Source of the DNA: Mytilus trossulus
Taxonomy: Eukaryota
DNA: 64,000 nt
Assembly (NCBI RefSeq): GCF_036588685.1
Contig: NC_086377.1
Location: 13,516,001-13,580,000 of the forward strand
Direction: 5' to 3'
Numbering within the stretch: the stretch's first letter is position 1; every line of letters begins with the position of its first letter. This document shows, piece after piece, positions 1 through 23,552 of the stretch. The position numbers and the translations under genes were made by a program. The notes below the pieces were generated by a model. That model did not search any database, was not told the origin of the DNA, and worked only from the letters and a program-made list of their open reading frames with translations.

Positions 1-2009
1 CAACCAAGATGGCCGACATGACTAATAATAGTACATAGGGTAAAATGCAGTTTTTGGCTAAAATCTCAGAAACCAAAGCATTTAAAGCAAATCTGACAGG
101 ATAAATTTGTTTGATAGGTCAAAGTCTATCTGCCCTGAAATTTTCAGACCAATCAGGCAACCCGTTGTTTGGTTGCTGCCCCGGAATTGGTAATTTTCAG
201 AAAATTTTGGAGTTTTGGTTATTATCTTGAATATTGTTATAGATAGAGATAAAGTGTAAACAGCAATAATGTTTAGAAAAGTTCAAGCTACAAATAAGTG
301 GATATAGCCAAAATTTTCAATTGACCCTTTAAGGGAGTTACTGCCCTTCATAGTCAATTTTATCAATTGATTTGTATTTGTTTGTCAACTTTTACCAAAT
401 GCTTCTCCTCTGAAACTGCAGTAGTCCCAAAAAAGGTCCTGCCCCCCTCACTAATGAACATATACTTGAAGAAAAACAAACATTTATTCCTTATGATAGC
501 GTTCCTTTGTTTACATTGAAAATGATGTGACAACTATAATCCCTAACATCAAAAATGTTTGAGTATTTTGGTTTCTTTTCAACAGATTCCAAAGTTTGAA
601 TGTCAAGTTTGAATTCTAATAATTTATACAGACTTCATCCCCTTTTACAGGTAATGTGTGCCTCATATTATTGTTTTAAAACTTTAATAGAATAACAGAC
701 ACTTTGAGAGCTAAATTAATCAACAACACCAGATCTTAGAATTGATTGATAGTGTTCAAAATATAAATTAACTATTAAAAGATGTTTTTCTCATTAAAAA
801 AATATAGTTCTTCATTTAATATATATATTAGAAGTTTAGGATTTTTTTTAATTTGATCGTGTCCCTTGTTCTCATTTCCTAGAATAAACCTACTTTAAAG
901 TATTGGTTTTGAATTAATATTTAAGAAATTTATTATACTAAAAGTAAAAATATTACTTGATACAAGAATAAAGACCATGTTTTCAGTGTCATGAGTTTCA
1001 GTCATCATATTTGTTGGACTTTGTTGTTTAAAAGTTTTTTGTGGTAATAAGATATAGCAAACAGGAAGTCTTCAATGAAAAGTCAGAATACTTCCTTTTT
1101 TGGTGGGAATCTTGAAGGTACAGTATTAAATGGAAGTGTTTGCTCAAGTTCAAAACTATAATTGGGACACACAAACTGCTTTGTATTTTCAGATAAAATA
1201 TAGATGAATAGGATCAATATAGTTTAAAGAAAAATCTGTTTAGCCTGCTAGCATTCTAAATTTAGAATGTAAATAAGCCCCAAAATAAAAATGACCATGA
1301 AAGGGAAGAAAACATTATTTTGCTGTTAATATTTATTTAACTGTGTTATCATACAACTAAATTTATCTAATTTGCAAACACTTTTACTCTCAATGTTTTG
1401 CATGCATGTTCTCAACAATGATCAATGATGATGTCAAGAAAACATTCTTGTAAAAGAGAAGGATGAAGCTAAAAACAAGTTTTCAATAGAAATATTAAAT
1501 TCATTAAAAATATTTAAACCATATGTGTTTTGTTTTGTTTGTTGGAATGAGTACTGATATACTTTATTTGTAGTTCTATAGAATAAAAATTGAAACATTT
1601 GTTATTGATTAAATCAGGAACATTTGTATTGACAGGACTCGAAACTACCTAATTATAGCTGATTCTATGTCCTTTCACAGTTAATAAATCATGACAAGAA
1701 ACAGAAACAGGCGTGTAAAATATGTTCTCTCTATTATCTGAATTATTTCTAAAGATATCAATAAAATGTCATTCATAATAAATGATGCAAGTGTATCTCA
1801 TTGTAGTTTGTCACTTCAAATTTGTCATAATAGCATTCATGTCATCAGAATGCAAATGGGGAAATAAAAAAATTGTGCCGATGGCATTGCCAATTTCTCA
1901 AACCATTAAAAGTGGGTCTCACTCTGGTCTAAGCATGACACAGGATTGACATTTTTTTGTAAGCGTGACAAATGAATGGCAAATTCAACAATTGTGGTTT
2001 TTACCCACC

Positions 2010-3022
2010 ATTTTTGTGGCCCCGCAACGAAGTCTGTAATTTTGTCTTTCTGTAATTCCGTCATTCCGCAACATACCATTATACGTTTTGTTCCGCTCCA
2101 CTAATTTTTGCCGAAATTACAGGCTTTGGACTATGATGAGCTACAGATCAAGTTTAAGTTTCGCTCTGCTACACTAATTTTTGTCGAAAAAACGCTTTGG
2201 ACTTTGAGAAATTGTCGAAAATCACAGTTATACAGACTTTTTTCTAAACGCCTTCATATATTGGGCTGATTTTTGGTATGTGAGTTAACCATAATAAGTA
2301 ACAGATCAAGTTTAAGTTTCACTCCGCTCCACTAATTTTTGCCGAAATTACAGGCTTTGGACTTTGAGAAATTGTTGAAAATCTCAGTTATACGGACATT
2401 TTTTTCTAAACGCCTTCAGATATGGGGCTGATTTTTGGTATGTGATACATAATGAGTTACAGATCAAGTTTACGTTTTGTTCTGCTCCACTAATATTTGC
2501 CGAAACTACGGGCTTTGGACTTTGAGAAATTGTTGAAAATCACTGTTATACAGACTTTTTTTCTAAACACCTTCAGATATGGGGCTGATTTTTGGTATGT
2601 TAGTTAACTATGATAAGTAACAGATCAAGTATATGTTTCGCTCCGCTCTACTTATTTTTTACCAAATTACGGGCTTTGGACTTTGAGAAATTGTTGAAAA
2701 TCACAGTTATACAGACTTTTTTTCTAAACGCCTTCAGATATGAGGCTGATTTTTGGTATCTGAGTTAACCATAATGAGTTATAGGTCAAGCTTAAGTTTT
2801 GTTCCGCTCTGCTGATTTTTGCTGAAATTACGGGCTTTTGACTTTGATAGATTATTGAAAACCACAGTTATACAGATTTTTTCTCTATTACCCTCCAGAT
2901 TTTGAGCTGAATTTTGGTATGCAAGGCTACTATCATGTTTGTGTCCACATGTGTGTTTATATTGAAATTGCAGATTTTTCAACTTTTTGGGACGAGGCCA
3001 TTCGTGTTGCTTTGACACATCT
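2010..3022 (+). mobile_element. HINE/DINE-like non-autonomous Helentron with about five 158-161 bp tandem repeats
   Basis: Starts TTTTTGTGGCCCCGC and ends GAGGCCATTCGTGTTGCTTTGACACATC (subTIR plus hairpin). The unit marker ACAGATCAAGT recurs at 2143, 2301, 2459, 2620 and ~2781. Confidence 0.75.
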
Positions 3023-3512
3023 GCTATCAGTTAATACAAGTTTGGTGACTATTTTTAGGCCCTGCCCCTTGGTCATGGTCCAATGACTTTGAATGAAGTA
3101 GCAATTTATGTTAAGTTAGTTTGATAAGAGCTACATGTGATAGATCAAATTCAATGATATTTTGTATGAGGTTGCAAATCTATCATTACACAATGCTATT
3201 ATGACAAATTTGAAGTGATTTCGCAGACTTATGGATTTATGGATACGTGTCAGTTTGATGACTATTTTGACACAACATTGACAAGTGACTTTGAATTAGT
3301 AAAATTTTCTGTGTAACTTAATTAGATTAAACAAATTTACAAGAACAAAACTGTTTTGAACACCAATTTGTATTTCTTATTTAAGATGTCAACTTCAAAC
3401 TTATTTACACATACATATGAATGAGCGTAAGTGCATTAGGTTATCTTAATTAATTGAAACTTTGTTTACTTAATTTAGAAAGATAGTTATAATAAATTAC
3501 ATGTAGATGGAA

Positions 3513-4447
3513 TTTTTAACCGGATTTTTGTGACAAAAATGTCGGTTATTGATTTGGGGATGTACGGCGGGCGGGCGGGCGGCCGGGCGGTCGGGCGGGC
3601 GGCAATCAAATGTTGTCCGTGCATTAACTCATGAACCGTTCAACCAAAGCTTTTAAAATTTTAATATGTTATTACTGACAACTATACGAAGGTCAAGTTC
3701 AATAATGGCGATTTTGACTTTTACCGTTCATGAGTTATGGTTCTTGAAAGATTGAAAAATGGAGTTGTCCGTGCATTTACGCATGAACTGTTCTACCAAA
3801 GCTTCCCAAATTTTAATATGTTGTTACTAATGACAGAATGGAGGTCAAGTTCAATAATGACGAATTTGACTTTTACCGTTCAGGAGTTATGGTTCTTGAA
3901 AGATTGAAAAATGGAGTTTCCAGTCATGTCCGTGCATTTATGCATGAACTGTTCTACCAAAGCTTCCGAAATTTTAATATGCTGTTACTGATGACAAAAT
4001 GGAGGTCAAGTTCAATAATGATGATTTTGACTTTTACCGTTCAGGAGTTATGGTTCTTGAAAGATTGAAAAATGGTGTTTCCCGTCGTGTCCGTGCATTT
4101 TCTCATGAACCATTCAACCAAAGCTTTTGAAATTTTAATATGTTGTTACTGATGACAAAATAGAGGTCAAGTTCAATAATGACGATTTTGACTTTTACCG
4201 TTCAGGAGTTATGGTTCTTGAAAGATCGTAAAATGGTGTTTCCATTCACGTTGTTGCATTTACTCATGAACCATTCAATCTAAGCTTTTCAAATTTTAAT
4301 ATGTTGATACTGATGACAAAATGGAGGTCAAATTTGATATTGACGATTTTCACTTTCACCATTCATCAGTAATGGTTCTTGTGATATTGCCAGGACACAA
4401 ATAAATGTTAATAAATCCGGTTTGCTGTCGTTGTGACAGCTTCTTGT
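3513..4447 (+). mobile_element. HINE/DINE-like non-autonomous Helentron with (GGGC)n microsatellite and ~161 bp tandem repeats
   Basis: subTIRs AACCGGATTT (3518-3527) and AAATCCGGTT (4413-4422); 5' hairpin; GGGC microsatellite at 3565-3603; AGGTCAA repeats at 3690, 3842, 4003, 4164, 4325; 3' hairpin GCTGTC-GTTGT-GACAGC (4424-4440). Confidence 0.85.
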
Positions 4448-4765
4448 CAACAATACTGCTATATTAAATATACAGGAATGCACCAGTAGTATCAATTTCT
4501 CAAACCTTTTTTGTATATGCAAATAAAACACAGCATATTAATATTGATCATGAAAAAAAAAAAGGCATAACTTAACTTTCCTTTATTTAACCAAAGGCAA
4601 CATGTTTAGCAATTAGCTATAATTGCACTTTGATATATTATTTTATCCCACTACACTGTTAATGAAGCATATCAGTATTCTAGATATATATATAGGTATA
4701 TCTATAAAAAAAACAAGTGACAACTCTATGACAGAAAACACATATGATAATCATGATATATATAA

Positions 4766-7700
4766 ATGTACAATGTCTACCCCAATCATACATGTATTAG
4801 CTCTCATTATGTAATTATTAATCTAGTCTTTCTTTTTTCACATGCAATTTATAACATTTTGTCCTCATTATTGTACATTATTTGCATATGTATTTATAGA
4901 TTTTTGAAGATGCCAAGAAGAAAAAATTGGAGGGCAGCTGAGGCTAAACGTGGTGTGAAAAACCCAAAGAAACAGAGACTGACGGACTTGACTTGGGATA
5001 CTGGACCCATTAACAGTACAAAATCTGACCTTGACATAGGTGATACTGACACCTTCAACAACAGTAACTCAAATAACATGGGGGATACTGACCTCCACAC
5101 AAATATAAACAACAGTAACTCAAATAATATGGGGGATACTGACCTCCACACAAATATAAACAACAGTAACTCAAATAACATGGGGGATACTGACCTCCAC
5201 ACATATATAAACAACAGTAACTCAAATAACATGGGGGATACTAACCTCCACTCAAATGCAAACAATAGTAACTTGAAACTACTTGAAAAATCTGAATTGA
5301 ATAAACTTGAAATATCTGAACTGAATATACTTGAAATATCTGAATTGAATAAACTTGAAAAATCTGAATTGAATAAACACGAACAATCTGAATTGAATCA
5401 AAACAGTAACAATAACTGTGCAAATCAAAACAGTAACAATAACTGTGCAAATCAAAACAGTAACAACAACTGTGCAAATCAAAACAGTGACAATAACTGT
5501 CTAAAAGAAACTTGTCACATACAAACAGATATTCTGTCAAATGAATCAAACAATAGTTATGCCAAAAAAGATTCTCATTGTTTTATCCAAACTAATCTGT
5601 TGCAAGACCAAAATGAACAATTTAAAACTAATTCAGAACAAGGAGTATCAAAATATTACAATTCTTTTAATGCAAACTTTATTAAATTTGGAACTTTTGA
5701 CCAGTATGCCACAAAATTTGCTGATCAAAGCAGGGGAAACCAATGTACTTGTAATTGCTTAGTTTTCTTATCACTTTCTTCTTTAAATTTTGATTCAAAC
5801 ACACTGAACCTGGATTACATTTTGAATAAAGGTGATGAAATTTACAAGAAGCATGTTCAAGAATTAACAACACAGGGATTATTTAAAAATATGCTCTTAA
5901 ATTTTGATGAAATTCCTGTCAAAATAGAAATTCCTGAAGGGATTTTTATAATTAACAAACAAAATATTCTGTTTGGAATAGCTTTACAGTACCAAGAGTT
6001 GACTGGATTTCTCACATTACAAGAAGCAATTCAAAATTGTATAAAGCAGTCGAACAAATTTCTTATTATGATTGGAGCCATATGTTCAGCAGTTTATTAT
6101 TATAATCATACATACTATTTTTTTGACACTCATTCTCATTCAGAATGTGCACTCAATAATCCATTAGATTCCTCTGGCAAAAGTATTTTGATTGGATTTG
6201 CTGACTTACATGACCTCCTCAGTTACTTGTATGGTTTTTACACCAGTTTACAAATTGATTTAGCCTCTCAATATGAAATTTTACCTGTAAGTATCACTAG
6301 TAAAGATACTGACAAAGATGTGACCAAGCAGATTAAGAATTACTTTAAGGATCAGAAACTAAGGAACACAAAACAAAAAAAAGTTTCCTACCAGTATATG
6401 AAAGTACCCAAGTTTGTATATATGAAAAACTACATGCAAAAAAGAAGAAAAAACAAACAATTCAAAGAAAAAGAATTAAATGCTAAAAGATATTCAAGAA
6501 AAGATAAGAATTACAGAAAAACAGAAGCACATAGAAAGAAGTCTCAGAGAGATAATTCTGATATAAGACAGATTGAGAGACAAAGAGAACTTGCTTCGAA
6601 AAGAGAGGCTAGAAAGAATGAAGATTTCAAAAAAACAGAACTTGCTGCTAAAAGAGAAGTTAGAAAGGATAAAAATTATAGAAGAGCTGAAGCAGAAAGT
6701 AAAAAGTCTCAAAGAGATAATCCTGATTTAAGACGGATGGAAAGACAAAGAGAATTTGTTGCTAAAAGAGAGGCTAGAAAGAATGAAGATTTCAAAAAAA
6801 CAGAACTTGCTGCTAAAAGAGAAGTTAGAAAGGATAAAAATTATAGAAGGGCTGAAGCAGAAAGTAAGAAGTCTCAAAGAGATAATCCTGACATAAGACA
6901 AATGGAAAGACAAAGAGAACTTGCTGCTAAAAGAGAAGTAAGAAAGGATACAAATTATAGAAGGGCTGAAGCAGAAAGTAAAAAGTCTCAAAGAGATAAT
7001 CCTGATTTAAGACGGATGGAAAGACAAAGAGAATTTGTTGCTAAAAGAGAGGCTAGAAAGAATGAAGATTTCAATAGAAGAGAACTTGCTGCTAAAAGAG
7101 AGGCTAGAAAGAATGAAGATTTCAATAGAAGAGAACTTGCTGCTAAAAGAGAGGCTAGAAAGAATGAAGATTTCAATAGAAGAGAACTTGCTGCTAAAAG
7201 AGAGGCTAGAAAGAATGAAAATTTCAATAGAAGAGAACTTGCTGCTAAAAGAGAGGCTAGAAAGAATGAAAATTTCAAAAGAAACGAAACAAAAAAGAAA
7301 AAAATTGCCAGACAAGATGAAAACTACAGAAAACATGAGTCAAAACGAGACTTCCACAGAAAACAAGAATATAGGTCACATCCAGAAAATTTAGAAAATG
7401 AGCGTTTGAAGAAACAAAGTTCAAGACAGAAAAACCTAGATATAGACAGATGTTATGAAAAGACAGTCAAAAGTACTAAAAGAAAAAACATTGATTTTAC
7501 AGATCACGAAAAAGACCTCAAAAAGAAAAGAACTCACGGTATAACCCTTGATACTTGCATTAGAAATTTTAAAACCAAAATTAATGAAGGTCCTACATAT
7601 ATATGTACTTCTTGTCATCAAACTTGGTTCTGTGATTCTGTAGTTAATGCTAAAACTATTAAAATGAATACTCCTGCTAACATGTCTCATTGTTTTACAA

Positions 7701-10700
7701 ATTTTAAATCTGTACAGCACATAGAATGGATATGCCACACTTGTCTAAATGCAATTAAAAGACAAAAAATACCTCGCTTTGCAATAGCAAATAAGATGGG
7801 ATTTCCCCAAAAACCAAAAGAATTAAATTTGTATCCCTTAGAAGAGAGACTGTTATCATTAAGAATTCCTTTTATGCAGATTCGACAGTTGCCTAGAGGT
7901 GGACAGTTATCAGTTAAAGGCAATGTTGTAAATGTGCCTGTTGAAGTTCAACCTACAATAAATTCACTTCCTCATACATTAGAGAAATCAGGAACAATAT
8001 CAGTTAAACTGAAGAAGAAGCTTGAATTCAAAAAGTGTGATTTTAGTGAAAATGTGAGACCATTTGCTGTCATTTGTGCATTACATTATTTGATGAGAAC
8101 AAGTGAATTGTACAAGTCTTCTGGAATAGAAATAAATGAGGATTGGATTACAGAAATCGCTAAAATAAATGAAGAAACACATGAAAATGAAAACAATAGT
8201 GCAGAACAAGAGAATGACCAAGATCAGAATGATTCAGATAATGACTCTGATCATTTCAGTGAAGTAGATGAAAGTGAAACGCATGTTGGAAACACAGATA
8301 CACTGTTAGATCACATTCCAGACGACAATCCACTATGTGATGCAGGTTTAACTTTTGCTCCTGGTGAAGGTCAACGACCAATTAGTCTCTACAGTGATCC
8401 TGATGCAGAGTACTTATCTTTTCCAACTATATTCTGTGGTCAACGAAGGCCAGATAACAAAGACAGGTCTGTCTCTGTTCACTTTACTGATATTGTCAAA
8501 TGGGAACTAAGGTCCATGGATAGGAGAGTAGCACAATCTGTACCAAATATATTTTTCAAGTTAAAAAAAATTCAGTTAAAAAACATAAGTGATAAGGTCA
8601 ATCTTGCTCTAAGAAGGTGTCAATCAGAAGGAAAAAAATGGACAGCAAAAGATGTACTCAATCCTAACACTGTAAATGATCTTGTAAGATTAGATGAAGG
8701 TTATTATATCTTTAGAAGTTTAAGAAATTCTCCAGTATACCTTGAAAAGAGGAAGAAAGATTTGTTTGCAATGATCAGACAGTTGGGTCTTCCAACATGG
8801 TTTGGCTCTCTTTCATCTGCAGACACTAATTGGAAAGATTTGTTACGAATTCTTGGCAAATTAAATGATGGCAAAGAATATACTGACAATGAATTGGAAG
8901 GAATGGATTGGCATCAGAAATCTAAACTTGTTCAGAAAGACCCTGTGACATGCTCTAGATATTTTGATTATCGTGTCCAACAGTTTATTAACTTGGTGTT
9001 GAAAAGTGATCATGATCCTATTGGAAAATTGACAGATTTTTTTTATAGAGTTGAATTTCAACAGAGAGGTTCACCCCATATTCATATCTTGATCTGGATT
9101 GAAAATGCACCAGTTTATGAAAGTGATTCAAATGAAGATGTTGTAGCATTTATTGATAAATATGTCTCCTGTTCACTTTTAGAAACTAATACTAATTTAG
9201 TCAATTTGCAGGTTCATAAACATTCAAAAACATGCAGAAAAAAAGGTCACCCAATTTGTCGTTTTGGTTTCCCCCTTCCACCTATGAAAGCAACAGTAAT
9301 CTTAGAGCCTTTAAAAGAAAATGATGACATAGAAAAGTACAAAGCTATATATAAAGAAATACAAAACGAAATTAATACACTTCACAATTCTGAAGATATA
9401 GACCAGATGACATATGACATGTTTTTAGATGATGTGTTACAAATGGATGATGAAAATTATATTAAGGCCATAAGAAGCAACTTGAGTGGTCCAAAAGTTT
9501 TTCTCAAACGAAAACCATCTGAAGTCCGTGTTAATGGTTACATGAAAACTGTGTTGATAGCCTGGCAAGCAAATCATGATTTACAGTATGTTTTAGATGC
9601 ATTTGCATGTGCAGTGTATATTGTTTCATATATAAGCAAGTCACAAAAAGGTATGAGTGCATTACTAGACCAAGCAGCAAAAGAAGCCCGACAGGGAAAT
9701 TTAGACTTGAAGCATCAAGTAAGGCACATTGGGAATTACTTTTCAAATTCTGTTGAAACAAGCGCACAAGAAGCAACATACTTAACACTACAGATGCCTT
9801 TAACAAAAGCTACAAGACAAGTCGTATTCATTAACACGTCTCCACAACACAAAAGAACTTTTCTCCTCAAGCAATCATCGGTTCTAGAAAAACTAGGCCC
9901 AGACTCTACTGAAATAGAATCAGACAATGATATTAAAAGGTACTCGCGTAGACCAAAACAACTGGAGAACTGGTGTTTAGCAGATTATGTATCTCAGCTT
10001 GAATTGCAGTATCCTAAAACTGAGTCCTCAGATGATCACGAAACAGAAGAAAAAGATCATGAATCTGATAATGAAAATGAAGCGGCAAATGCAGATATTA
10101 TAGAAGAAATCAATAACAAAATCGACATAACCCTGAAGAATGGTATTCGAATATATCAAAGAAAAACACCTAAGGTTATAAGATATGTTAAATACAATTA
10201 CAAGACTGACTCTGAAAACTTCTACAGAGAACGCTTAATGTTATTTTATCCATGGAGAAATGAACTTTCAGATTTGCAATGCGAACATGAAACATTCGAA
10301 AACATGTACTTGACCGTTGCAAGAATTTTAGAAAAAAAAGCTAAGCAATATGAAGGAAAAGTGATAGACCTAGAGAAAGCTATAGAAGAGGCAGAAAACG
10401 ATTGTAATGAGAATGATCAAATAGCACCTGCCACACAGCAAGTAGAAATGGAAGATGCTGAAATAGGCCCAACAGAATCTGAACAGTATGTACATTTCAA
10501 TCCAGATAGACCAACAGAACATAGACTGTATGATATGTCCCGTGAAGTTGGAATAGAAGCAAGAACAGTAGAATTGACAAATCATGCAAACAGAATAAGT
10601 GAGAGGGATTATTTTGATTTGATAAGATCCTTGAATAAGAAACAGTGGGAATTTTTCCAACATGTTGTCACATGGGTTAAAACAAAACATGAACCATTTT

Positions 10701-12766
10701 ATACATTTTTGACAGGTGGAGCAGGATGTGGAAAATCTGTAGTTGTAAGAACAATATTTCAAGCTTTACACAGACACTTATGCTCTATTGAAGGTGAGGA
10801 CCCTGACGATATTAGAATTCTTCTTTGTGCTCCTACTGGAAAGGCAGCTTACAATATAAATGGTCTGACCATTCACAATGCTTTCCAGATACAACCAAAT
10901 AAAGGACTTGACCAGTCATTGTCATGCGATGTTCTCAATACACTCAGAATGAAATACAGAAATTTGTCTCTGATTTTGATTGATGAAATTTCAATGGTTG
11001 GAAATAAAATGTTCTCTTTACTGGAGAGAAGGCTGAAAAAAATCAAGGGAAGCAACTGTTCATTTGGTGGCGTGAGTATCATAGCTATTGGTGACTTTTT
11101 CCAACTCCAACCTGTATTTGACAGCTGGATTTTCAATGATCTAAGCAAAGGATTAACAGCATTAGCTCCTAATTACTGGAAATTATTATTTTCTTTTCAT
11201 GAACTAACTGAAATAATGAGACAAAAAGATGATTTGGAATTTGCTCAATTACTAAATAGGTTGAGACAAAATCAGCTGACTGAAAATGATTTTGCAGTTT
11301 TAAATACAAGAACTGTTTCAATCAGTGATCCAACATACAGAACTAATGCTACTCATTTGTTTGTTGAAAATGCTTTAGTGGATAATTTTAATTTGCAATA
11401 CATATCTAAATTAGGCTCACAAAAGGTTAAAGTTACAGCAGTTGACACAGTTTGTGGGGATTTACCAGCATCTGTAAAAACAAAATTACTTAGTTCTTTA
11501 CCAGAAAAACAGTCTGATACAGCAAACCTTGCAAAGGAAGTAGTATTAGCAATTGGGATGAAATATGATCTTACAGCTAATATTGAAGTCACTGATGGTC
11601 TCACAAATGGTTCAACTTGTGAACTTAAATTGATAGAGTGCAAAACGAAATCTATAAGACCAAGTATCATATGGGTTAAGTTTGAGGATGCCAGAATTGG
11701 TGCTAACAATAGAAGAAAATATTCCCACTTGTTTGGAAAAGATGTTGAAATTACATGGACTCCAATGTTTGATATTAAAAGGTCATTTACTTATAAATAT
11801 AAGACCTTTGAAAGAATTCAATTTCCTCTTCGTCCAGCAGCTGGAAAAACAATTCATAAATCGCAAGGAGATACATTACAAGAAGTTGTTGTTAGTCTGA
11901 AATCAAAACGTAAAGGAAAAATTCCACATATTCACTATGTTGCACTAAGCAGAGTCACATCTTTAACTGGATTACAGATATTAGATCTCAATCAACAAGC
12001 AATAGCTGTAGCAGAGTGTGTTCGACAAGAATTACACAGACTAAGGACAGATGCAACTCTACAGTTGTGCTTTAAGCCATTGTATAATTTATCAAGTAAC
12101 TATTTTAAAGTCGTTTTCAACAACTCAAGGTCATTGCATGCTCACTTTAATGATATAAAATCAGACCCTAACATCTTGGATGCTGATGTTATTGGTATTG
12201 CTGAATCAAGACTTATATCAACAGATGAAAATGGGGATTTTCATTTACCTGGTTTTGAACCACCAGTTCGGTTAGACCAAAAGCAAACAAACTTTAATAC
12301 AAGACCACCTCATGGATTGGTATTATATTATCGAAATAATTGTATTCTTCACAATACAGTCACTTTCTCAACTCCATCGTTAGAGTTTGTTATAGCAGAC
12401 ATAATATCACCTAGCAAAGGTGTTTTTCAGATTGTCTTTGTTTACAAGGCACCAAACTGCAAATTGCAACAACTAAAAGATACTTTCCTTGTAAATCTTC
12501 TTCCTGATGTGTATTTAAGACTTCCAAAAATTATCATAATGGGAGACTTTAATATTGATTTAAACACTGGGAACACTTCTTTTTTAAAGTTCATGAGAGA
12601 TTCATTTTGCTGTTCACAAATTGTGTCTAAACCTACTACATCTTCTGGTACACTGTTGGACTTAATTTTCCTAAATTTTGATAGTAAGATAAACTTTGAA
12701 ACAGATGTTCTTGATTCCTATTGGTCAGATCATAAAGTTATATATGTAGCCATTGAAACACAATGA
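4766..12766 (+). CDS. Helentron RepHel polyprotein: VTD/peptidase-C76-like deubiquitinase, charged repeat array, Cys-rich/DUF6570-like region, HUH Rep, Pif1 helicase, APE endonuclease (probable start ATG 4910, MPRRKNW)
   Basis: Uninterrupted 2666-codon ORF. Protease motifs GTFDQ..RGNQCTCN (Cys ~5744) and YFFDTH (~6116-6133). CTSC...WICHTC. Rep motifs VEFQQRGSPHIH (~9050) and YIVSYISK (~9617). Helicase motifs GGAGCGKS, DEISM, GDFFQLQPV, TIHKSQG, YVALSRV. APE motifs FNNSRSL, IAESRL, MGDFNID, LDLIF, SDHKVI. Confidence 0.95.
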   Translation: MYNVYPNHTCISSHYVIINLVFLFSHAIYNILSSLLYIICICIYRFLKMPRRKNWRAAEAKRGVKNPKKQRLTDLTWDTGPINSTKSDLDIGDTDTFNNSNSNNMGDTDLHTNINNSNSNNMGDTDLHTNINNSNSNNMGDTDLHTYINNSNSNNMGDTNLHSNANNSNLKLLEKSELNKLEISELNILEISELNKLEKSELNKHEQSELNQNSNNNCANQNSNNNCANQNSNNNCANQNSDNNCLKETCHIQTDILSNESNNSYAKKDSHCFIQTNLLQDQNEQFKTNSEQGVSKYYNSFNANFIKFGTFDQYATKFADQSRGNQCTCNCLVFLSLSSLNFDSNTLNLDYILNKGDEIYKKHVQELTTQGLFKNMLLNFDEIPVKIEIPEGIFIINKQNILFGIALQYQELTGFLTLQEAIQNCIKQSNKFLIMIGAICSAVYYYNHTYYFFDTHSHSECALNNPLDSSGKSILIGFADLHDLLSYLYGFYTSLQIDLASQYEILPVSITSKDTDKDVTKQIKNYFKDQKLRNTKQKKVSYQYMKVPKFVYMKNYMQKRRKNKQFKEKELNAKRYSRKDKNYRKTEAHRKKSQRDNSDIRQIERQRELASKREARKNEDFKKTELAAKREVRKDKNYRRAEAESKKSQRDNPDLRRMERQREFVAKREARKNEDFKKTELAAKREVRKDKNYRRAEAESKKSQRDNPDIRQMERQRELAAKREVRKDTNYRRAEAESKKSQRDNPDLRRMERQREFVAKREARKNEDFNRRELAAKREARKNEDFNRRELAAKREARKNEDFNRRELAAKREARKNENFNRRELAAKREARKNENFKRNETKKKKIARQDENYRKHESKRDFHRKQEYRSHPENLENERLKKQSSRQKNLDIDRCYEKTVKSTKRKNIDFTDHEKDLKKKRTHGITLDTCIRNFKTKINEGPTYICTSCHQTWFCDSVVNAKTIKMNTPANMSHCFTNFKSVQHIEWICHTCLNAIKRQKIPRFAIANKMGFPQKPKELNLYPLEERLLSLRIPFMQIRQLPRGGQLSVKGNVVNVPVEVQPTINSLPHTLEKSGTISVKLKKKLEFKKCDFSENVRPFAVICALHYLMRTSELYKSSGIEINEDWITEIAKINEETHENENNSAEQENDQDQNDSDNDSDHFSEVDESETHVGNTDTLLDHIPDDNPLCDAGLTFAPGEGQRPISLYSDPDAEYLSFPTIFCGQRRPDNKDRSVSVHFTDIVKWELRSMDRRVAQSVPNIFFKLKKIQLKNISDKVNLALRRCQSEGKKWTAKDVLNPNTVNDLVRLDEGYYIFRSLRNSPVYLEKRKKDLFAMIRQLGLPTWFGSLSSADTNWKDLLRILGKLNDGKEYTDNELEGMDWHQKSKLVQKDPVTCSRYFDYRVQQFINLVLKSDHDPIGKLTDFFYRVEFQQRGSPHIHILIWIENAPVYESDSNEDVVAFIDKYVSCSLLETNTNLVNLQVHKHSKTCRKKGHPICRFGFPLPPMKATVILEPLKENDDIEKYKAIYKEIQNEINTLHNSEDIDQMTYDMFLDDVLQMDDENYIKAIRSNLSGPKVFLKRKPSEVRVNGYMKTVLIAWQANHDLQYVLDAFACAVYIVSYISKSQKGMSALLDQAAKEARQGNLDLKHQVRHIGNYFSNSVETSAQEATYLTLQMPLTKATRQVVFINTSPQHKRTFLLKQSSVLEKLGPDSTEIESDNDIKRYSRRPKQLENWCLADYVSQLELQYPKTESSDDHETEEKDHESDNENEAANADIIEEINNKIDITLKNGIRIYQRKTPKVIRYVKYNYKTDSENFYRERLMLFYPWRNELSDLQCEHETFENMYLTVARILEKKAKQYEGKVIDLEKAIEEAENDCNENDQIAPATQQVEMEDAEIGPTESEQYVHFNPDRPTEHRLYDMSREVGIEARTVELTNHANRISERDYFDLIRSLNKKQWEFFQHVVTWVKTKHEPFYTFLTGGAGCGKSVVVRTIFQALHRHLCSIEGEDPDDIRILLCAPTGKAAYNINGLTIHNAFQIQPNKGLDQSLSCDVLNTLRMKYRNLSLILIDEISMVGNKMFSLLERRLKKIKGSNCSFGGVSIIAIGDFFQLQPVFDSWIFNDLSKGLTALAPNYWKLLFSFHELTEIMRQKDDLEFAQLLNRLRQNQLTENDFAVLNTRTVSISDPTYRTNATHLFVENALVDNFNLQYISKLGSQKVKVTAVDTVCGDLPASVKTKLLSSLPEKQSDTANLAKEVVLAIGMKYDLTANIEVTDGLTNGSTCELKLIECKTKSIRPSIIWVKFEDARIGANNRRKYSHLFGKDVEITWTPMFDIKRSFTYKYKTFERIQFPLRPAAGKTIHKSQGDTLQEVVVSLKSKRKGKIPHIHYVALSRVTSLTGLQILDLNQQAIAVAECVRQELHRLRTDATLQLCFKPLYNLSSNYFKVVFNNSRSLHAHFNDIKSDPNILDADVIGIAESRLISTDENGDFHLPGFEPPVRLDQKQTNFNTRPPHGLVLYYRNNCILHNTVTFSTPSLEFVIADIISPSKGVFQIVFVYKAPNCKLQQLKDTFLVNLLPDVYLRLPKIIIMGDFNIDLNTGNTSFLKFMRDSFCCSQIVSKPTTSSGTLLDLIFLNFDSKINFETDVLDSYWSDHKVIYVAIETQ
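5040..5500 (+). repeat. Coding minisatellites in the Helentron N-terminus (51-bp NNSNSNNMGDTDLHTNI, 24-bp LEKSELNK, 27-bp NQNSNNNCA units)
   Basis: Direct tandem repeats, all multiples of 3, visible in DNA and protein. Confidence 0.9.
6465..7340 (+). repeat. Coding K/R/E-rich modular repeat array (17-aa and 21-aa modules; 165-bp higher-order unit)
   Basis: ELAAKREARKNEDFNRR-type 51-bp units in tandem at ~7030-7280. The unit ELAAKREVRKDKNYRRAEAESKKSQRDNPDLRRMERQREFVAKREARKNEDFKKT recurs at 165-bp spacing (~6638, ~6803). Confidence 0.9.
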
Positions 12767-13690
12767 TTCAGTATAATGATTATTTTATATGCCAAAACCA
12801 GCTTTGTTTGTAACAATGAAAATTAAACCCGCTTAAAAACATGACACATTTGGGGTTGCTGAAAATGCAACCTCAAATGTGCAGGAGTGGTTTTAAAGGA
12901 AAATGGGTTTCCACTCCAACAGATTTGCCTTTTCACAAGTAGGAATAGAAATGAGATGGCTTCAAGACTCCTGATATCCAGTTTTACCTGTATAAAAGAA
13001 AGCTTATTTACAAAGCTTTCTTCTTTATAGGTACACTGGATTAACAGTAGCAGAGGTAAATAAATTTGAAACTGTGTTGCTTTGACCTCCATAAAGCAGA
13101 AAGGTCCTTGGTGATTGATCAACCATTTTGCTATGGAGGAAAAGTAGAATTCCATTCATTTCAAGTCAGTAATGATTGGAGACATCAAATTTTAGATCCT
13201 CTACTACCTGAATGCTCATTGTATCAGTAGAGAGTTGTGTGCACTTTGCATGTGAACACTCCTGATATTTACCTGTTATTAACATGATTTATGTATATGT
13301 ATATAATTCTTGAAATATTTGTTTTTGAATACAATCAAAAGCCATTGCTTTAATATAGATATAAAAGGGAGTTTTGAAGACCACAAGTTCCATGCCTCAT
13401 TTCTCTTCCTACAAAATAATTAGATTTAACTGGCTGTTTGATGAACTATGATTAAATAATCAAAATGTTTATGAATGTTGAGATCCTTGCTGTTATTTCA
13501 ATTATGTCTTATTCTAAGTACAGGTCTACCAAAATGTGTAAATCATTAATTTATGCAAAGGGTTAAATTTTGGAAAAAAATATCAAATATTGCATTAATT
13601 TGTCATTCTACTCAACTATGTGGTTGCTTATACATTTGATAAATATGTAGAAGTCATTTATAAAACAGAAACTAATGAACAATTTATGAT

Positions 13691-14050
13691 AACATTTGCT
13701 TCATAGAGATAAAATTTGTGAACATTTGATTAATAGAGAAAAAAATTGTGACATTTGCCTATTAGAGAAGAATTTGTGAACATTTGCTTAATAGAGCAGA
13801 AATTTGTGACATTTGTCTGTTAGAGAAGAATTTGTGAACATTTGCTTAATAGAGCAGAAATTTGTGAAAATTGCCTATTAGAAAAGAACTTGTGAACATT
13901 TGCTTAATAGAGCAGAAATTTGTGACAATTGCCTATTAGAGAGAATTTGTGAACACTTGCATAATAGAGCAGAACTTTGTGAACATTTGCTTAATAGAGC
14001 AAAAATTTGTGAACATTTGCTTAAAAGAGAAGAAATTTGAGAACATTTAT
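13691..14050. repeat. Minisatellite of alternating 30/28-bp units in the Helentron 3' region
   Basis: About 12 units such as AACATTTGCTTAATAGAGCAGAAATTTGTG and ACATTTGCCTATTAGAGAAGAATTTGTG, with no unique spacers. Confidence 0.85.
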
Positions 14051-16859
14051 TGATGGGTTTATAATAAGCCAATGTAAAGAAATTTAGTAAACTAACTGCT
14101 GAAGAAAGAATTATATAGATTGTTTCAGTTGTTCTTATATTAACATCATACAACAATTGATTAACATATGGAGTAAACTCTAGAATCTTACATTAAAGCA
14201 AATCCACCAGAACTAATCTGAATAAAGTTTAAAACAGAAATACTATGGACTATAACTCAGTATACCATGAATAGAAAGGAAACATAAATGACAATTACTT
14301 ATAGTTGTTAAATGCTCAAGAGAAAATAAATTATATATAGAATCTAGACTCTTAAATTGAAAAAAAAATGGTGAATATTCTTCTTGACAAGTCTTTACAA
14401 ATTAACTTCAAGTCATTTTGAAGGTTAAGCTATGGAAACAATAATCATATCATGATATAATTGCTGTGATGCTTTTTATTATATATACTGTTTTTACTGT
14501 CATATTTTGACTTTGAAAATGTGTTGTTATAGAATGTAAATAGTGTGCTATAAGTGAACTGTTTTAATGCACAAACATATATAAAAAAAATGTATAAGAC
14601 AATGAATATTATAATGCATTATTTGAAGTATTTCATGTGTTCAAATTTTTCATAATAAAAAATTAAATTTGATGTCTTTCAATATTTTTCACACCCCATT
14701 CATTTTATAAATTGATAAAAACAAAACCTTCAGTCAAAAAGAGAAAAAAAAATGAGTTGGAGACAAACTTGGTCACAACCCAAAATGACAAACAAATAGC
14801 AGCTTCACACATGATAGAACTACTATAAAGGTATTCTCTATTTAAGCTAACAAAAACTTAGTTCTCTGAGTCTACCTTCTTGTTCAATTCAAGTAATACC
14901 TATTCATTTTGAATCTTAATTTAAAGGTCGGGTCACCACTCATTAAAGAATTAGATTATAATCTTGGGTCCAGTAAAAAGATTGATCTGTTGTCCTTCTA
15001 CATAATGATCAGTAACTTTGCTGTCATAACCAATTGAACAACTTATATATGATGAACATGTCAAAATAAATTCAAGTTTCCTTGATGATTCTTGACCAGT
15101 AATGATAGCGTCTGGCGTATATACAAAATGTAGTCCTGGTATCGATGATGAGTTTATATAGAACAAATATATAGATATGTATGTCAATGAGCATGATGAG
15201 AAAACAACACAATACTTGAAAAGTATGTTTTAGACTTCAAAACTGAAAATAATAAACTAGTTGAAAGTAGTTCAATCACAAAAAAGATTAGATATTGGTT
15301 CACAACGTTTCCGTTAACAAAAAGTTATTTCATGCAACAATTGTCAACAACAAATTTAAGGTGAGCGACACAGGGTCCTTGGACCCTCTAGTTATTTTGA
15401 AGGACAACTTATTTTGAGTGACCTTTAAATTGTTTACTAGTAAGTCTTTTTATTATAAGTAATAAAGAAATAGAATGAAATTGTTCATGTACTTGTTCAA
15501 AACTTGACAAATCAAGTTACATGTATGATTTTGTCTTATCTGCAGACACATACTACCTATATGTGTATAGTTTCAATTACAAGTTGGTGTATTTTTAACA
15601 GTACATTTTCATTTTTGTTTTCTGTTCCTCAATTTTGATAGGCATTTGGTCATAAAGGTTGTAGGGTTGTGGGCCGAAATATATCATCAGTAGTTAGTTA
15701 CGAATTAGTTCACATGTTCTTTTTTCTTTCAATTCTCTTAATACACATGAAAGGATTAACTGAAATACACAAAAAAATACACCAAAAAAGAATAAAGAAT
15801 CGTAACAGCAAAATGAACACTTTACCATAAAAAAAATACAGCAAAACTCGTGATCATAAATTATCTAAAATCATACTTTTAATAATACTTTCTTATAGTT
15901 TATAAGTGATTTTATATGCATTATATAATGCTGACAACCAAATATATGTCTTATACCAGGTCTATCTTTTTTCTATATTTAACATTTCTATGTTTCTCTT
16001 TTACAATTTACAGCGTCTCAAAAGTTACCATAAAATGGTAAAAATACTCTTATAATAGTTTACCAAAAAACTTCTTTTAAATACACATATTCTTTGACTC
16101 ATATATAACAAACATACCGTATTGGTTGACCATGGTATTATAATATAGCTTCAAAAACGTTTAACTTCAAAATTTGCTTCATCACATTCGATTCACAAAA
16201 TAATTACTCTTTCGATTAGGAGACCGAAACATGCTAAAAAATGCTTGTTTACAATAAAGTGTTCGATTTCAAATAAAAAAAAACAACAACCAATCAAAAA
16301 CTGACTTACATAATCAACTGTACTAAGAAAATGAAACTGTAGACATATTTCTTTTATCCAAGATGAGTTGGTCATCACAGACCATCTTTCTTTTAAACTT
16401 TATATCTGAGCTTTAAATATGAGAGCCTTGTCCTCTTCTTTTGTGACTGATCTTTCAACGTCAAAAGAGCTTTCACTGCTTTCATTTCTGACAAATATGG
16501 AATAATTGATATTATTTAATATGAAAATTTTATAATAAAAGTACTCAGTACGGTGACCTATAGTTGTTAATTTCTGTGTCATTTTGTGGAGAGTTTCCCC
16601 ATTGGCAATCATACCACATCTTTTTTTATAGGCTAAATATATCAGATTTTTTGGTAAATTTCAAGTGCAAGTTTTTTTTATAGAAAAAATCACTTCAGAA
16701 TTGTCTGTACAGATGCGTTCCTTATCTCTATTACCTTGAATGTTCAATTTGATTACAAGGTATTGCACTGCAAAAGATCTTTTGAAAACATAAAAAATCT
16801 TACCATTTAATTAAACATATTATTTGTGTGTATTCGTTTTCTTGGTCCCTTGGTTCACT

Positions 16860-17520
16860 ACCACTTGGCATTTTACTACGTACATTCCATTTCCATCTGA
16901 TGTTTCAAATCTTTTTAGACAATTTTCGTTAGAAAAACCCTAAAAAGATCAAAAAGTTTTGGTAATAAAAATGTAAAAAAATTCTACCAACAAGACCAAT
17001 ATCTAATTTATGCAGTGAATTTAAAAGGTAAATGCCTATGCATCAAATTATGAATAAATATACTATAACAAATCCACCCATTTCAAATGGCTACATGTGA
17101 ATAAAATACATATCCATGGTTCTTTCATTGATTTATTGCCTAAGCATGGGTATCTCTTGCACATCAGTCTCTTCAATAAACGTACCCTACTCATTTTGAA
17201 TTTAACCTTTTTCAAGAAGTTTTATAGATGAAGAATGAAACGGCCCATACAATTCTAGTGGTTTTGTTATTTGACATGTTGAATCCCTTCCAGTTGTCTC
17301 TAATTCTTTTGATTTGGGCTGTGACACCTCAATCTGGAAGGTATCTGAATCAGATGATCCATGGTCTAATACAATAATAGTTTCATGTTCTTTCGGGATT
17401 TCTGCAATCCCTGACGATATAGGTTGTAGCATACATGTATACTTGAATTTATTTGTTTTTTTTCAAAGTTGGTATATTTTTCTTCTTCGTCAATTTGTTG
17501 CTGAAGTAAGTGGGATATGT
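16860..17520 (-). pseudogene. Degenerate SAMD3-like accessory gene (N-terminal/middle part) of an EnSpm/CMC element
   Basis: Minus-strand MCKRYPCLGNKSMKEPW (~17110-17165), followed by an exon-like FF*RKLSKKI*NIRWK. Resembles the 'KxPCL..W..L..K..NxR' pattern of animal EnSpm accessory proteins; lies downstream of the transposase relic on the same strand. Confidence 0.4.
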
Positions 17521-17919
17521 TAACCTGGACCTGAAAGCCAAAACTCTGTGTTAAAGACTATTTTGACCCAACATGATTTAAGTTACAAATGGTGGTGACT
17601 TGAACGGAGAGTTGTTTCATTGGCACTCATACATGAACCACCTTTTTCTTTCATCTATGTGTATAAATTTATAGTCCAGGCATTGTTATTTGTGTATTAA
17701 ATAGTACATTGTTTTAGTTATGTGCATTGTACATAGAATATTATATATGCCTAAATATATTTAACGTTTGTAAATTATGTGAATTAAATTACCATACATA
17801 TATAACAAGCATTCTCCCAATGTAAATATCCTGTATTTGTTCCATAAATGACACACTGTCATCACTATTGGATCTCTTGCATGTATGGTTTGAAGCAATA
17901 ACTGCTCTTTGCACAAGAT

Positions 17920-18120
17920 TGTCAGATATAGTTTTACCCATTTTAATTTTCTCGTTAGTATCTTCATGCTGGTACGTTGTGAGTGACTGTACGGACTTGT
18001 GCCCAGTGACTGCCATTAATTACGCAGATCCATCCATGTGTTGTGATAAAACTGTGGCTCCAGTTGCTCGTATTGAGTGATTGGTATAAATATTAGACAA
18101 ATTACACTTCTTACTGAGTT
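17920..18120 (-). pseudogene. Crypton-type (DUF3504-like) tyrosine recombinase C-terminal fragment
   Basis: Translation ELSKKCNLSNIYTNHSIRATGATVLSQHMDGSA*LMAVTGHKSVQSLTTYQ contains the HxxR, (T)GH and catalytic Y motifs. In-frame stop at 18020-18022. Confidence 0.8.
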
Positions 18121-18132
18121 CTTACCTAATAA

Positions 18133-18475
18133 TTCATGCATATTCAGGACGAGAACAAGTTCACAATAAATACAATAGGTAGGTTGATACAAAAGAGGCC
18201 ATCTGGGATGATGGTCGGGATAATTTGGACTGCCACTGGACAATGAGGCTATATTGGATAGGGAAAGAAATTTTGCCTTGCAACAGGCCACCTACGGACG
18301 CCTCAAAGAGTTGTTGCAAGGGTTCTTAACGTGCAAAGAGCGTGGTACTCTCTTTACACGAGGCATCGCATTTAACGTCCCCCTTCTGACCGGACGCTCA
18401 ACTTCGGCAAGCGTTTTACTGCCGGTCGAGAGAAGACCAAATGACCATATTTCTATACCCCAGTCAGCCTTGGGG
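18133..18475 (-). mobile_element. SINE copy (Nin/Deu-like core), 3' tail missing, fused to a LINE fragment
   Basis: Near-identical to the copies at 25116-25548 and 27394-27751. Confidence 0.85.
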
Positions 18476-19573
18476 ATGCCTACAAGTCCGTCGTGCCTTA
18501 GCGCAAAACATACGGAAATTACTCCAAGTTTTCCGTCATTGGTTGTTGATTGAACCGTCTTTCAGATTTTTTACGGTCACCTATGGCTTGATAACAAGCG
18601 TCATCAAACCATGGTTTGCTGGGATGTTTCGGATTTGCCGAGGTCTTAGGAATAGTTCTGTCAGCAATTGACGTTAAAACTGTATTAAAAGTTAAAATTG
18701 GATCTTGCAAAGTCTCAAACATATTTGACTGAAGTTCCGCTTGACAGAGATTCTCAAACAAGGACCAGTCCGCCTTGTCAAGTTTCTAACGTGGTACTCT
18801 CTGTTGGGCAGAATTAAAAAGATGTTCAAGTACTATTGGAAAGTGATCTCTTCCACATAGATCATCATGAACACGCCACGAGTAATCCAGGAGCAGAGAG
18901 GGATCGCATATAGTGATATCAATAGAAGAATAAGACCCGTTTCCAGGATGAAGATACGAATTAGATCCATCATTCAAAATGCATAATCCTTCTTGAGAGA
19001 CAAAGTCCTCAATGATCTTACCTTTGGCATTTTTAGTCTTGCTACCCCATAATGGATTGTGAGCATTAAAGTCGCCCATAAGTATAAATGGTGAGGGTAA
19101 TTGATCAGTGAGGTTTTTAAGTTTTGCTTTTATATCTATAATTGAATTGGGTGGAATATATATCGAACATAATGTAATTGTTTTGTCTTATGATAAACGA
19201 ATTGCAACTGCTTGTAGATCCGTTGTGAGTTGGACTGTGCTATGAATGACGCTGTCCTTCACAAAAATGGATGATCCGCCAGCAGCACGTTCATCTACCT
19301 TAGAAAATGTGCTATACATGTTGTGTCCTTTTAAAGATACATTGTAACTTTCTTTTAGATGAGTTTCTTGAAGACAAAATGATATAGGTAAAAAAGACTG
19401 AACTAGAAGTGTTAACTCGAGAAAATTTATTTTCAGACCATTGGATTATGTTTGTCATTATTTAATAAAAGAAGGGCGAATGCTGTCGAGTTTGCCAGCA
19501 TTCTTACAAGAGCGTATCCATCAAGCGAAAAAGAAAGCGTATCACTTGATTGACCCATGAGCCATCGCCTTCT
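18476..19573 (-). mobile_element. Internally deleted copy of the 28.5-34.2 kb LINE (5' end + APE domain, ORF1 missing)
   Basis: 19510-19573 matches the LINE 5' end (~34102-34166). 18477-19506 matches ~31398-32449 (APE: MGDFNAHNPLWGS, RDHFPI). Confidence 0.9.
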
Positions 19574-19804
19574 CCAGAAATACAAACGAGAAAATAAGTT
19601 TGAAGGAAAAAATTTGTGTTAATATATAACTGCTCATTATAATGTCATTAAATGATAAACAAAACAAAAAACTTGTATAATTGGAATAAATAAATTATAT
19701 TAAAAGATCAAACATGTAATTTTCTCTTAGTCAGATTATTTTAGATTTGGCACAAAGAAAATAATTTCCAATATCATCAATTCTAACATTTACCATTAAA
19801 GACA

Positions 19805-21281
19805 TTATTTTTTATGTATCCACAACACAAAGAAAACATTTTTTTTAGTAACTTTGATATGGTTAGCTTTTACTGACAGAGAGTTCGGCTTCAACTCTCT
19901 TTCTTTATATCTGTGCATCACAGCAACAAGTGAGAAATCACAACTACACAAATCATCCAAACATTCACATTTGTTGGCAAGAATATAGTAAGAGACTTCT
20001 CCTTTCAGGCTCAAAATATTTAACTGTGTTTGTGTTCCTTACACTGACTCTACTATACTCTAACGAGTGAATAGTAAATCCACGAAGTGATATTCTTCTA
20101 AAACATAAACACTTGTAATAACCTTTGGTTTTTAATAACCTTTGAATAAACCTCATCTGACAAATGCATTTTCATCTTGCTTCCAACTGAACCAGTAAGA
20201 GTACCAGTATATATTATTTTGAATTTTCTGACACATTTTGCATTTTTCTTCTGCGAATGCTTTATGAACTGGATCCTCAATATTGCAAGGATGGTCCCTT
20301 AATACCTTTCACAACGGTTCCATTTTGTATAGCTGTTACCGCATTGTTAATGCATTCTTGTGGTGTCTTTTCTCAGGGTCTGGTTCAGAGCTGTTGTAAG
20401 GAAAAGTTCTACCAGTGCCTTCTATTGAGGTTATATATGTTTCTACTGAATGCATACATCTGAGGCAGCTATATTGTCCATTAAACTGGTTACAATTCAT
20501 TACTATACTTTTTGCTGGCAAATTTGCAGTGCCACAAATAAAAAAAAAGACACTTACTGTTGTGAGTTTGACCATTGTAATCAAAATCTATTCCATTTGT
20601 TTCTATATCTTTAAAGTGTTGACCAAACCTCCCATAAAAGGCTTTGATTCTCCAAACCATGGGTGACTGCAGATCTGTGAAAAATCTGTTGAAAGTGTAC
20701 ATACTCTTTTTTTAAGTCCGTCATGTGAATGCATGTAATGCAAACCAATGATTGTTAATAAGTCATTCAACTAGGCACCACTAATGCTATAACACATAGA
20801 ATAAAGTAAAATCAATACCATACTAGTATAAATTGTCATATGGTGACCAGGGTAGATTGTTGAATTTTGTTCAAAGTCGTAGCAATTGTCTACATTTTCA
20901 TTCTTTCATTCAGAGGTGTTAAAAAATTGTCGGCATCATCAGCTGATATATCTGGTGGTCCATTAACTCGTGCTATTTTTCATTAGATATAAATTCACCA
21001 GCATCTGCATTACTTTGATCTTTAAAGTGAAAAGTTGCCCCTTCAATCAAGCTACTTATAGTATCTTTAATCGCAGTGTCATCATTTTCCTCTTTATCAT
21101 TAACAATAGTTTCTGAGTCTGATGTCTCAAAATGGTCAACAAATAAGTTTATTGGACTCCACTGATCCAATTCAGTAACCAATTCAGGAACATCTACATT
21201 TTCTTCTGCTGACTCCACTTTTTTTGTTTTTTTTCGGTGGATTTGTTTCATGACAGTGTGATCAAGGTCATACTCTTCCAA
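19805..21281 (-). pseudogene. Degenerate EnSpm/CMC (CACTA-type) transposase
   Basis: Minus-strand motifs WFGESKP, CGTANLPAKSIVMNCNQFNGQYSCLRC (~20455-20535), KGIKGPS (~20289-20309) and HSLEYSR..RN, spread across frameshifts. Confidence 0.7.
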
Positions 21282-21557
21282 GCTTGTCTACTTTTCTAGT
21301 TGGTTGGTTGTCATTACCGAAAAGAAAGCTGATAAAAAATTGAATAAAAAGAATGCACCCAAAAAATATAGATTTCCAATACAGAATCACAACGCCACCT
21401 ACGTACATGACACACCTAAAACTTTTTGTCGCTCTTGTTAAATCTTGTTTGATCACTAAATTTTAGTAAAGTTTTAATAGCTTTCGGTTCTTGTTTCAAT
21501 ATCTTGTATTGTAATAAATGAGGCGGTACAGAATACTATGGGAATGATGTGATAATT

Positions 21558-21717
21558 AAATAATTAATGGCAGTTGTAGATTTGTTTTCATTTAACCATG
21601 GGTTCGGCATTTATATACGGTTATTTTACCCTGAGCGTTAGCGAGGGGTAAAATAAGAATATAAATGCCCAACCCATAGTTAAATGAAAACAAATGTATG
21701 ACTGACATGAATTATTT
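21558..21717. repeat. ~160-bp imperfect inverted repeat (long hairpin/cruciform)
   Basis: Left arm AAATAATTAATGGCAGTTGTAGATTTGTTTTCATTTAACCATGGG...TTATTTTACCC pairs with right arm GGGTAAAATAA...CCCATAGTTAAATGAAAACAAATGTATGACTGACATGAATTATTT; loop GAGCGTTAGCGA. Confidence 0.9.
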
Positions 21718-23508: not shown

Positions 23509-23552
23509 GCACCAGATGCGCATTTCGACAAAACATGTCTCTTCAGTGATGC
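23509..23552 (-). ncRNA. Type I hammerhead ribozyme, second tandem copy
   Basis: Same sequence as 23158-23201, 351 bp downstream. Confidence 0.9.

Follow-up and report, generated by a model that had tools for sequence, protein, structure and literature searches.

Overview of the locus

The window, by which we mean the whole 64,000-nucleotide stretch analysed here, contains one uninterrupted ORF at 4910-12766 (+), which runs from ATG to TGA, spans 7854 nt without a stop and encodes a protein of 2618 aa. At the composition of the window, a stop-free frame of 2618 codons would arise by chance with a probability of about 1e-89. In total, ten ORFs that start with ATG reach 150 aa or more, and the second longest has 678 aa. 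The initial annotation had singled out this ORF as the only intact autonomous one, which agrees with our finding that a second Helitron, a LINE and a BEL/Pao-like element are all in pieces. The ORF encodes the VTD-RepHel-EN protein of a Helentron (HLE2), and a full-length relative, LOC143073656 (P0170, 2608 aa), is found in M. galloprovincialis. From the N-terminus, the protein is composed of a VTD, a charged linker, a Cys4 finger with DUF6570, an HUH Rep, a PIF1 helicase and an AP-type endonuclease.

An upstream in-frame ATG is located at 4766. We take 4910 as the better start from sequence comparison, because the MPRR.. N-terminus is shared by divergent relatives and because the alignment of 4728-4898 with the M. 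galloprovincialis copy requires a change of frame. The region 4728..4909 (+) was assigned as element-internal 5′ non-coding sequence, which is homologous across that frame change to the region preceding the start of P0170; gene model P0004 joins the Helentron frame here, and a 3′ splice acceptor likely lies directly before the ATG at 4910. The N-terminus of the protein (4910..5659, +) is of low complexity and contains tandem repeats of 51, 24 and 27 bp, which vary in number between Mytilus copies. The linker between the VTD and the zinc finger (6320..7549, +) is likewise made of tandem repeats, with units of 51, 114 and 165 bp, and encodes about 400 K/R-rich residues (35% K+R), in which no Pfam family was found.

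Several decayed elements are scattered over the rest of the window. A canonical Helitron1 RepHel with a G-L-P-H motif at ~45581-50199 (+) is in at least four stop-free pieces, interrupted by stops and by a 22-bp tandem duplication at 49835-49879; the G-L-P of its Rep is the Helitron1 state, unlike the G-S-P of the Helentron. A broken LINE at 28659-33900 (-) has ORF1, endonuclease, RT and RNase H, and a partial LINE copy that is 93% identical to it lies at 18477-19506 (within the region 18477-19581). A gag-protease fragment at 35243 is BEL/Pao-like, a label that we take DUF1759/DUF1758 to carry. As well, a DEAD/RecQ-like helicase fragment (E 3e-6) was observed at 22563-22949 (+), and a run of broken frames with a Rho_N/SAP-like motif (E 2e-6) at 39096-41840 (+); both are probably other decayed elements.

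Rep, helicase and endonuclease domains

The Cys4 zinc finger (CxxC at 7604 and 7733) and DUF6570 occupy 7577..8164 (+; DUF6570 E 1.5e-19), and DUF6570 has been described as a marker of the HLE2 group (PMC11417382). The model of this region is of moderate confidence (pLDDT 72, pTM 0.47). Foldseek gave nothing for it at E <= 0.001 and the top VIA matches, with a Z of 3.5, were treble-clef-like zinc fingers; the predicted structure shows no sign of a new fold, and the structural match is uninformative.

The HUH Rep endonuclease at 8345..9859 (+; Helitron_like_N E 1.6e-24) carries FYR-VEFQQRGSPHIH (H1390 at 9077, H1392 at 9083) and YxxxYxxK (Y1570, Y1574). Its motif at 9050 has both Helentron-diagnostic positions as given in PMC4067079, namely F/Y-x-R before motif 2 and the S in G-S-P-H-x-H. 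The PIF1-family helicase at 10607..12019 (+; PIF1 E 1.7e-23), in which the Walker A (K1942) and Walker B (D2025/E2026) residues are intact, is encoded together with the HUH Rep by the single Helentron ORF.

The last 228 residues (12092..12763, +) correspond to an AP-type (Exo_endo_phos) endonuclease, for which the Exo_endo_phos_2 match (E 2.9e-5, 24.4 bits) falls under the cutoff of 27.4. N2405, E2432, Y2512, D2546, N2548, D2607 and H2608, presumably catalytic as in the APE family, are all present in the window protein and kept as well in P0170, P0173 and P0171, while three relatives, P0176, P0177 and P0213, score above the cutoff for Exo_endo_phos. We assign the C-terminal domain as an AP-type endonuclease despite its sub-cutoff Pfam score, since its catalytic motifs are shared with these cutoff-passing relatives. 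The Rep signature, DUF6570, PIF1 and the AP-type endonuclease bear out the Helentron class proposed at first, and by its domain content the element is a Helentron (HLE2), probably of subgroup b.

The VTD deubiquitinase domain

A VTD / Peptidase C76 deubiquitinase domain is encoded at 5672..6295 (+; aa ~255-462), as indicated by Pfam PF04843, the match to 8ADD and the predicted fold. The GxxxQ..GNQC and FDTH motifs reported earlier for ~5680-6290 are found as GTFDQ at 5690, GNQC at 5735 and FDTH at 6122; the residue range of ~305-510 given along with them had been counted from the ATG at 4766 and shifts to ~255-462 from 4910, the domain itself standing. Its key residues are Q278, C279 (codon 5744), D333/E334 (5906-5911), D406 (6125) and H408 (6131). 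Pfam PF04843 (Herpes_teg_N) matches aa 265-413 with an E of 5.4e-10, at 39.6 bits for the whole protein and 44 bits for the domain against a cutoff of 25. By sequence, the closest solved relative is 8ADD (E 2.3e-22), followed by MCMV M48, and a profile of 58 sequences reaches two herpesvirus large tegument deneddylases (E 3e-10 and 8e-10). The 8ADD structure is that of DrT1-VTD2, a domain of a zebrafish Helentron (PMC9741609).

The AlphaFold model of the domain (mean pLDDT 93) is predicted to adopt the papain-like alpha-beta-alpha fold of 8ADD and M48. It matches 8ADD with a Foldseek E of 9.7e-20 and a TM of 0.83 (VIA Z 29.9, rmsd 1.9 Å, 210 residues aligned), MCMV M48 (2J7Q) with a VIA Z of 23.3 and an rmsd of 3.2 over 202, and the K6-specific Waddlia VTD with a Z of 17.1. 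C279, D406 and H408 align with the catalytic Cys and D-x-H of 8ADD, D333/E334 with DrT1 D376/E377, which bind the RxR tail of ubiquitin, and F355 with F398, and the loop on the Ile44 side is equal in length. The alignment of the Cys, DxH and acidic pair to the DrT1-VTD2 residues is free of gaps, and mutation of the Cys, DxH or acidic-pair residues of DrT1-VTD2 abolished or reduced its activity (PMC9741609). On sequence and model, the identity of aa ~255-462 as a VTD is firm, and the structural comparison upholds the C76/VTD assignment first made from the motifs.

The triad is intact in 100 of the 106 homologues that cover all three positions (from a set of 167), in 95 of the 103 VTD-bearing proteins among the best 120 of 723 relatives, the remaining eight not covering the sites, and in 15/15 close copies spanning them, a retention of Cys, Asp and His among copies that is in keeping with the initial annotation. 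The identity of the VTD to those of P0171 and P0172 is 41-50%, and a triad kept over this distance implies selection on catalysis. Compared with P0171, the VTD is less conserved (50%) than Rep (79%) or the helicase (76%).

A search of viral structures with the VTD model returned, besides herpesvirus tegument proteins, the unnamed entry Q06VS9 (E 1.6e-12) and, at E 2e-4 to 7e-4, uncharacterised proteins of the giant viruses Catovirus, Indivirus and Yasminevirus. The words 'giant', 'mimivir' and 'ascovir' do not occur in the main text of PMC9741609. The enzyme had been called viral-type, a label that runs against the argument of PMC9741609 that herpesviruses probably acquired the VTD from a Helitron-type element and not the reverse.

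Relatives and distribution of the VTD

A homologue search limited to proteins of 399-2000 aa, which favoured truncated gene models, gave 20 matches, of which 16 are named Mytilus and 14 are Mytilus proteins at 81-97% VTD identity. These relatives agree with the mollusc host inferred at first and place it in Mytilus. The full-length search recovered the complete M. galloprovincialis copy LOC143073656 (P0170), in which all checked catalytic residues are intact. From the zinc finger to EN, it is 94.6% identical to the window copy, and the nearest relative, LOC134722507 of M. trossulus, is 98.4% identical; long related copies are found in M. galloprovincialis, M. edulis and M. trossulus at 94.6-98.4%. 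In the tree, whose deep joins are long branches and were left unused, the window copy groups with M. trossulus P0174 inside a Mytilus clade (100/99).

The Rep region matched 723 proteins, and among the best 120 of them a VTD was detected by our own profile in 103, while an OTU is listed in none. These 120 are redundant, forming 13 clusters at 90% with 95 members in one of them, and a VTD-bearing member occurs in 8/13 clusters. In 16 of the 17 relatives without a VTD the N-terminus is shorter than that of every VTD-bearing protein, and these may be truncated gene models; P0140, which is only distantly related, combines an OTU with two VTDs. Since 103 of the best 120 relatives carry a VTD and none lists an OTU, the VTD is, as far as these sequences go, standard equipment for the clade and OTU is not the norm, which contradicts the earlier statement that Helentrons more typically carry OTU proteases.

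The wider distribution is known from previous studies. PMC9741609 described 1221 non-viral VTD sequences, mostly in Helitrons, and VTD-bearing Helentrons of molluscs among them, and the HELIANO study found Herpes_teg_N in the RepHel ORF and reported its enrichment, along with that of EN, in HLE2 subgroup b, whose hosts include Mollusca (PMC11417382). In the literature searched, with most subscription journals outside it, these two papers alone link Helitrons to VTD, and the Mytilus family is not described. 'Mytilus' and 'mollusc' are absent from the text of three supplementary files of PMC9741609; the figures of its supplements, and the HELIANO supplements, may already contain the family. Public databases already annotate the VTD (UniRef 'Peptidase C76 domain-containing protein'), and we regard the element as belonging to a multi-copy Mytilus family and as an ordinary additional member of the published VTD-Helentron group, molluscs included.

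Termini, flanking HINEs and age of the copy

A 29/58-bp tandem array at 13691..14048, downstream of the ORF, possibly lies inside the 3′ region of the element. A pattern search on the ORF strand gave a candidate Helentron-type 3′ terminus at 15355..15393 (+), which consists of a subterminal repeat arm, a GC-rich hairpin and CTAGTT; this pattern occurs twice in the window, compared with two occurrences in total over 20 simulated windows. A 5′ partner arm for this end was not found in 1-4909, where the 8-nt subterminal motif (<=1 mismatch; 22 matches vs 21.3 expected) had no match, and a scan of 1-4909 against 12767-30000 for inverted pairs of 11 bp or more gave AT-rich ones only, consistent with chance. 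The 5′ end of the element may lie before the start of the window, and 15355-15393 could be either its own 3′ end or an unrelated remnant. No further copy of the Helentron was found in the window by tblastn or blastn, which matched only the unrelated Helitron1. A search of the flanks for an extra ORF of the element with 12 relatives, queries unable to detect RPA, gave only 4728-4909, Helitron1 and the LINE endonuclease.

Upstream of the ORF, at 2010-3025 and 3514-4440, are two non-autonomous elements of the HINE type, identified by the structure described in PMC7492417, which carry satellite arrays of 161 bp and lie 1.9 and 0.5 kb before the ATG at 4910; in the latter, the subterminal repeats are intact and a GGCG microsatellite is present as well as a 3′ hairpin. 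If both sit inside the Helentron, it may be older or immobile. A further, complete HINE lies at 60119-61145 (-), with a 166-bp unit in 4.8 copies. Because its 3′ end is similar to the orphan one at 15355-15393, the window Helentron may be its autonomous partner.

The youth of the element, proposed in the initial annotation, comes out as plausible from its intact 7854-nt ORF and few private changes. By a rough estimate, biased by the choice of an ORF that is intact, a neutrally decaying ORF of 7854 nt is expected to break by ~0.3-0.7% divergence. Over 1716 positions, the window copy shows 2 private changes, neither of them at a deeply conserved site; this count is helped by a close sister in the set and has little power (p 0.46). 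In P0170 of M. galloprovincialis, 1/42 private changes falls at conserved sites vs 13.5 expected, which points to purifying selection in the family.

The same observations bear on another possible origin of the window copy, as a gene domesticated by the host or as a relic that no longer moves and has stayed intact through chance or selection, outside any active family. The lack of a terminal pair and the nested-looking non-autonomous elements just upstream would fit such an origin, as would the predominance of truncated gene models among the annotated Mytilus copies, although proteins >2000 aa were excluded from that search. However, there are many distinct close copies, including the 14 Mytilus proteins above, and long copies exist across three Mytilus species; moreover, all four enzymes are kept in a coding region without introns, and the 1/42 of P0170 is consistent with selection during transposition. 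We therefore consider domestication or a relic to be unlikely.

Proposed function of the VTD

Our preferred reading, which we hold to be likely, is that the window contains a recently inserted intact copy of a multi-copy Mytilus HLE2 family, in which a tethered K48/K63-directed VTD, not cut off from the protein, protects the transposase or nearby proteins. Elements of this class move by rolling-circle transposition, which is carried out by the HUH Rep and the helicase. Here, the HUH Rep would nick and join single strands via its tyrosines, the PIF1 helicase would unwind DNA, and opening of the target would probably fall to the AP-type endonuclease. The N-terminal VTD, a thiol protease of the helitron/herpesvirus branch, very likely cleaves K48/K63 chains and perhaps NEDD8, by analogy with its zebrafish homologues, which react with Ub probes and cleave K48/K63, with two of three acting on NEDD8 (PMC9741609). 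The VTD would remain joined to the transposase by the long charged linker, because a conserved cleavage site is lacking. It would most likely serve to remove degradative ubiquitin from the transposase or from neighbouring transposition proteins; protection of the transposase or its partners was likewise proposed, and not tested, in PMC9741609. No follow-up on the role of a transposon deubiquitinase during transposition was found in the literature searched. As a counterpoint to protection by the tethered VTD, DrT2-VTD is without NEDD8 activity in PMC9741609, so NEDD8 activity varies in the family. Furthermore, the VTD core is absent from two annotated Mytilus models, LOC134722507 of M. trossulus and one of M. 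edulis, and because of this the domain may be dispensable.

In the initial annotation, the VTD was also suggested to process the polyprotein, cutting the long protein into separate enzymes as viral papain-like proteases do. Viral DUBs often cut polyproteins after di-glycine, and one site within DUF6570 (aa 996-998) has the RGG ending of ubiquitin, with GG in 112 of the best 120 relatives; in the model of that region, the site is predicted to lie in a hairpin turn and could be exposed. However, the window protein (P0001) has only three GG sites, all within conserved domains, and GG occurs between the VTD and the zinc finger in 1/103 VTD-bearing relatives among the best 120. The second Gly of RGG is Arg in 10 retrieved proteins, five of which read R/K-G-R while showing the Cys and DxH motifs, and the first Gly alone is invariant in the alignment, as expected of a structural turn. 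Neither the window protein nor its relatives gave a conserved di-glycine site between domains, and self-processing is thus very improbable.

Another explanation is that the VTD acts mainly in trans on the host, like EBV BPLF1, through cullin deneddylation or removal of K63/K48 chains from repair or silencing factors, which would make the nucleus permissive for transposition. DrT1-VTD1 and DrT1-VTD2 cleave NEDD8-AMC better than BPLF1 (PMC9741609), and the fold of the mussel VTD is closest to that of DrT1-VTD2. Against this, the NEDD8 activity of DrT2-VTD is negligible, an identity of 27-29% to 8ADD is too low to transfer specificity, and PMC9741609, in the parts consulted, shows no target of a helitron VTD. 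Action mainly in trans is possible and somewhat doubtful, and it is not exclusive with protection by the tethered VTD.

Two annotated Mytilus models, P0173 and P0174, leave the VTD at one common point. A GT..AG pair there, with the donor at 5704 and the acceptor at 6516, spans 813 nt and removes the VTD in frame; it could be either a bypass of breaks by the gene predictor or a real DUB-less isoform. Directly after the VTD, at an A-run at 6375-6382, several Mytilus models (searched at <=2000 aa) end or shift frame, in different frames. Because the frames differ, a programmed frameshift is disfavoured, and assembly error or slippage is more likely.

A more far-reaching and rather improbable scenario is that the family is active today, with the tethered VTD as a cis shield, a spliced DUB-less isoform as a switch, and the element as the autonomous partner of GCTCACCT-type satellite HINEs. 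If so, the VTD would strip ubiquitin from Rep while Rep is covalently bound to DNA via its tyrosine, blocking host DNA-protein-crosslink repair until transposition ends. Splicing from the donor at 5704, which two independent Mytilus models use, would give a DUB-less transposase and thereby an on/off switch, and the satellite-carrying HINEs of the GCTCACCT type, whose 3′ end is maybe common to the Helentron, would be driven by this autonomous element. The Helentron may identify the autonomous driver of the abundant HINE/satellite elements of mussels. Returning to protection by the tethered VTD, a clean, apparently young copy with a single VTD and no OTU is a good template for asking what a transposon deubiquitinase does in transposition.

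Comparison with known systems

The mussel element most closely resembles the zebrafish Helentrons DrT1/DrT2 (Erven et al. 2022, PMC9741609; 8ADD) in the fold, the Cys...Asp-x-His triad and the acidic pair of the VTD, and in having the VTD N-terminal to RepHel and an AP endonuclease at the C-terminus. It differs from them in its protease content, having one VTD and no OTU, while DrT1 has two VTDs and DrT2 a VTD and an OTU. Its VTD shares 27-29% identity with the zebrafish 8ADD.

Like HLE2 subgroup b of HELIANO (PMC11417382), the mussel element combines DUF6570, Herpes_teg_N and EN in the RepHel ORF, a placement based on domain content. The Mytilus models LOC143073656 and LOC134722507 are of the same family as the window copy and differ from it in repeat numbers. 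The herpesvirus tegument DUBs (MCMV M48 2J7Q, EBV BPLF1, KSHV ORF64; Peptidase C76 / PF04843) have the fold and triad in common with the mussel VTD, and profile matches to them have an E of 3e-10 to 2e-5. However, the identity to them is ~22%, and the mussel domain is part of a transposase, without the capsid-binding part of the herpesvirus proteins.
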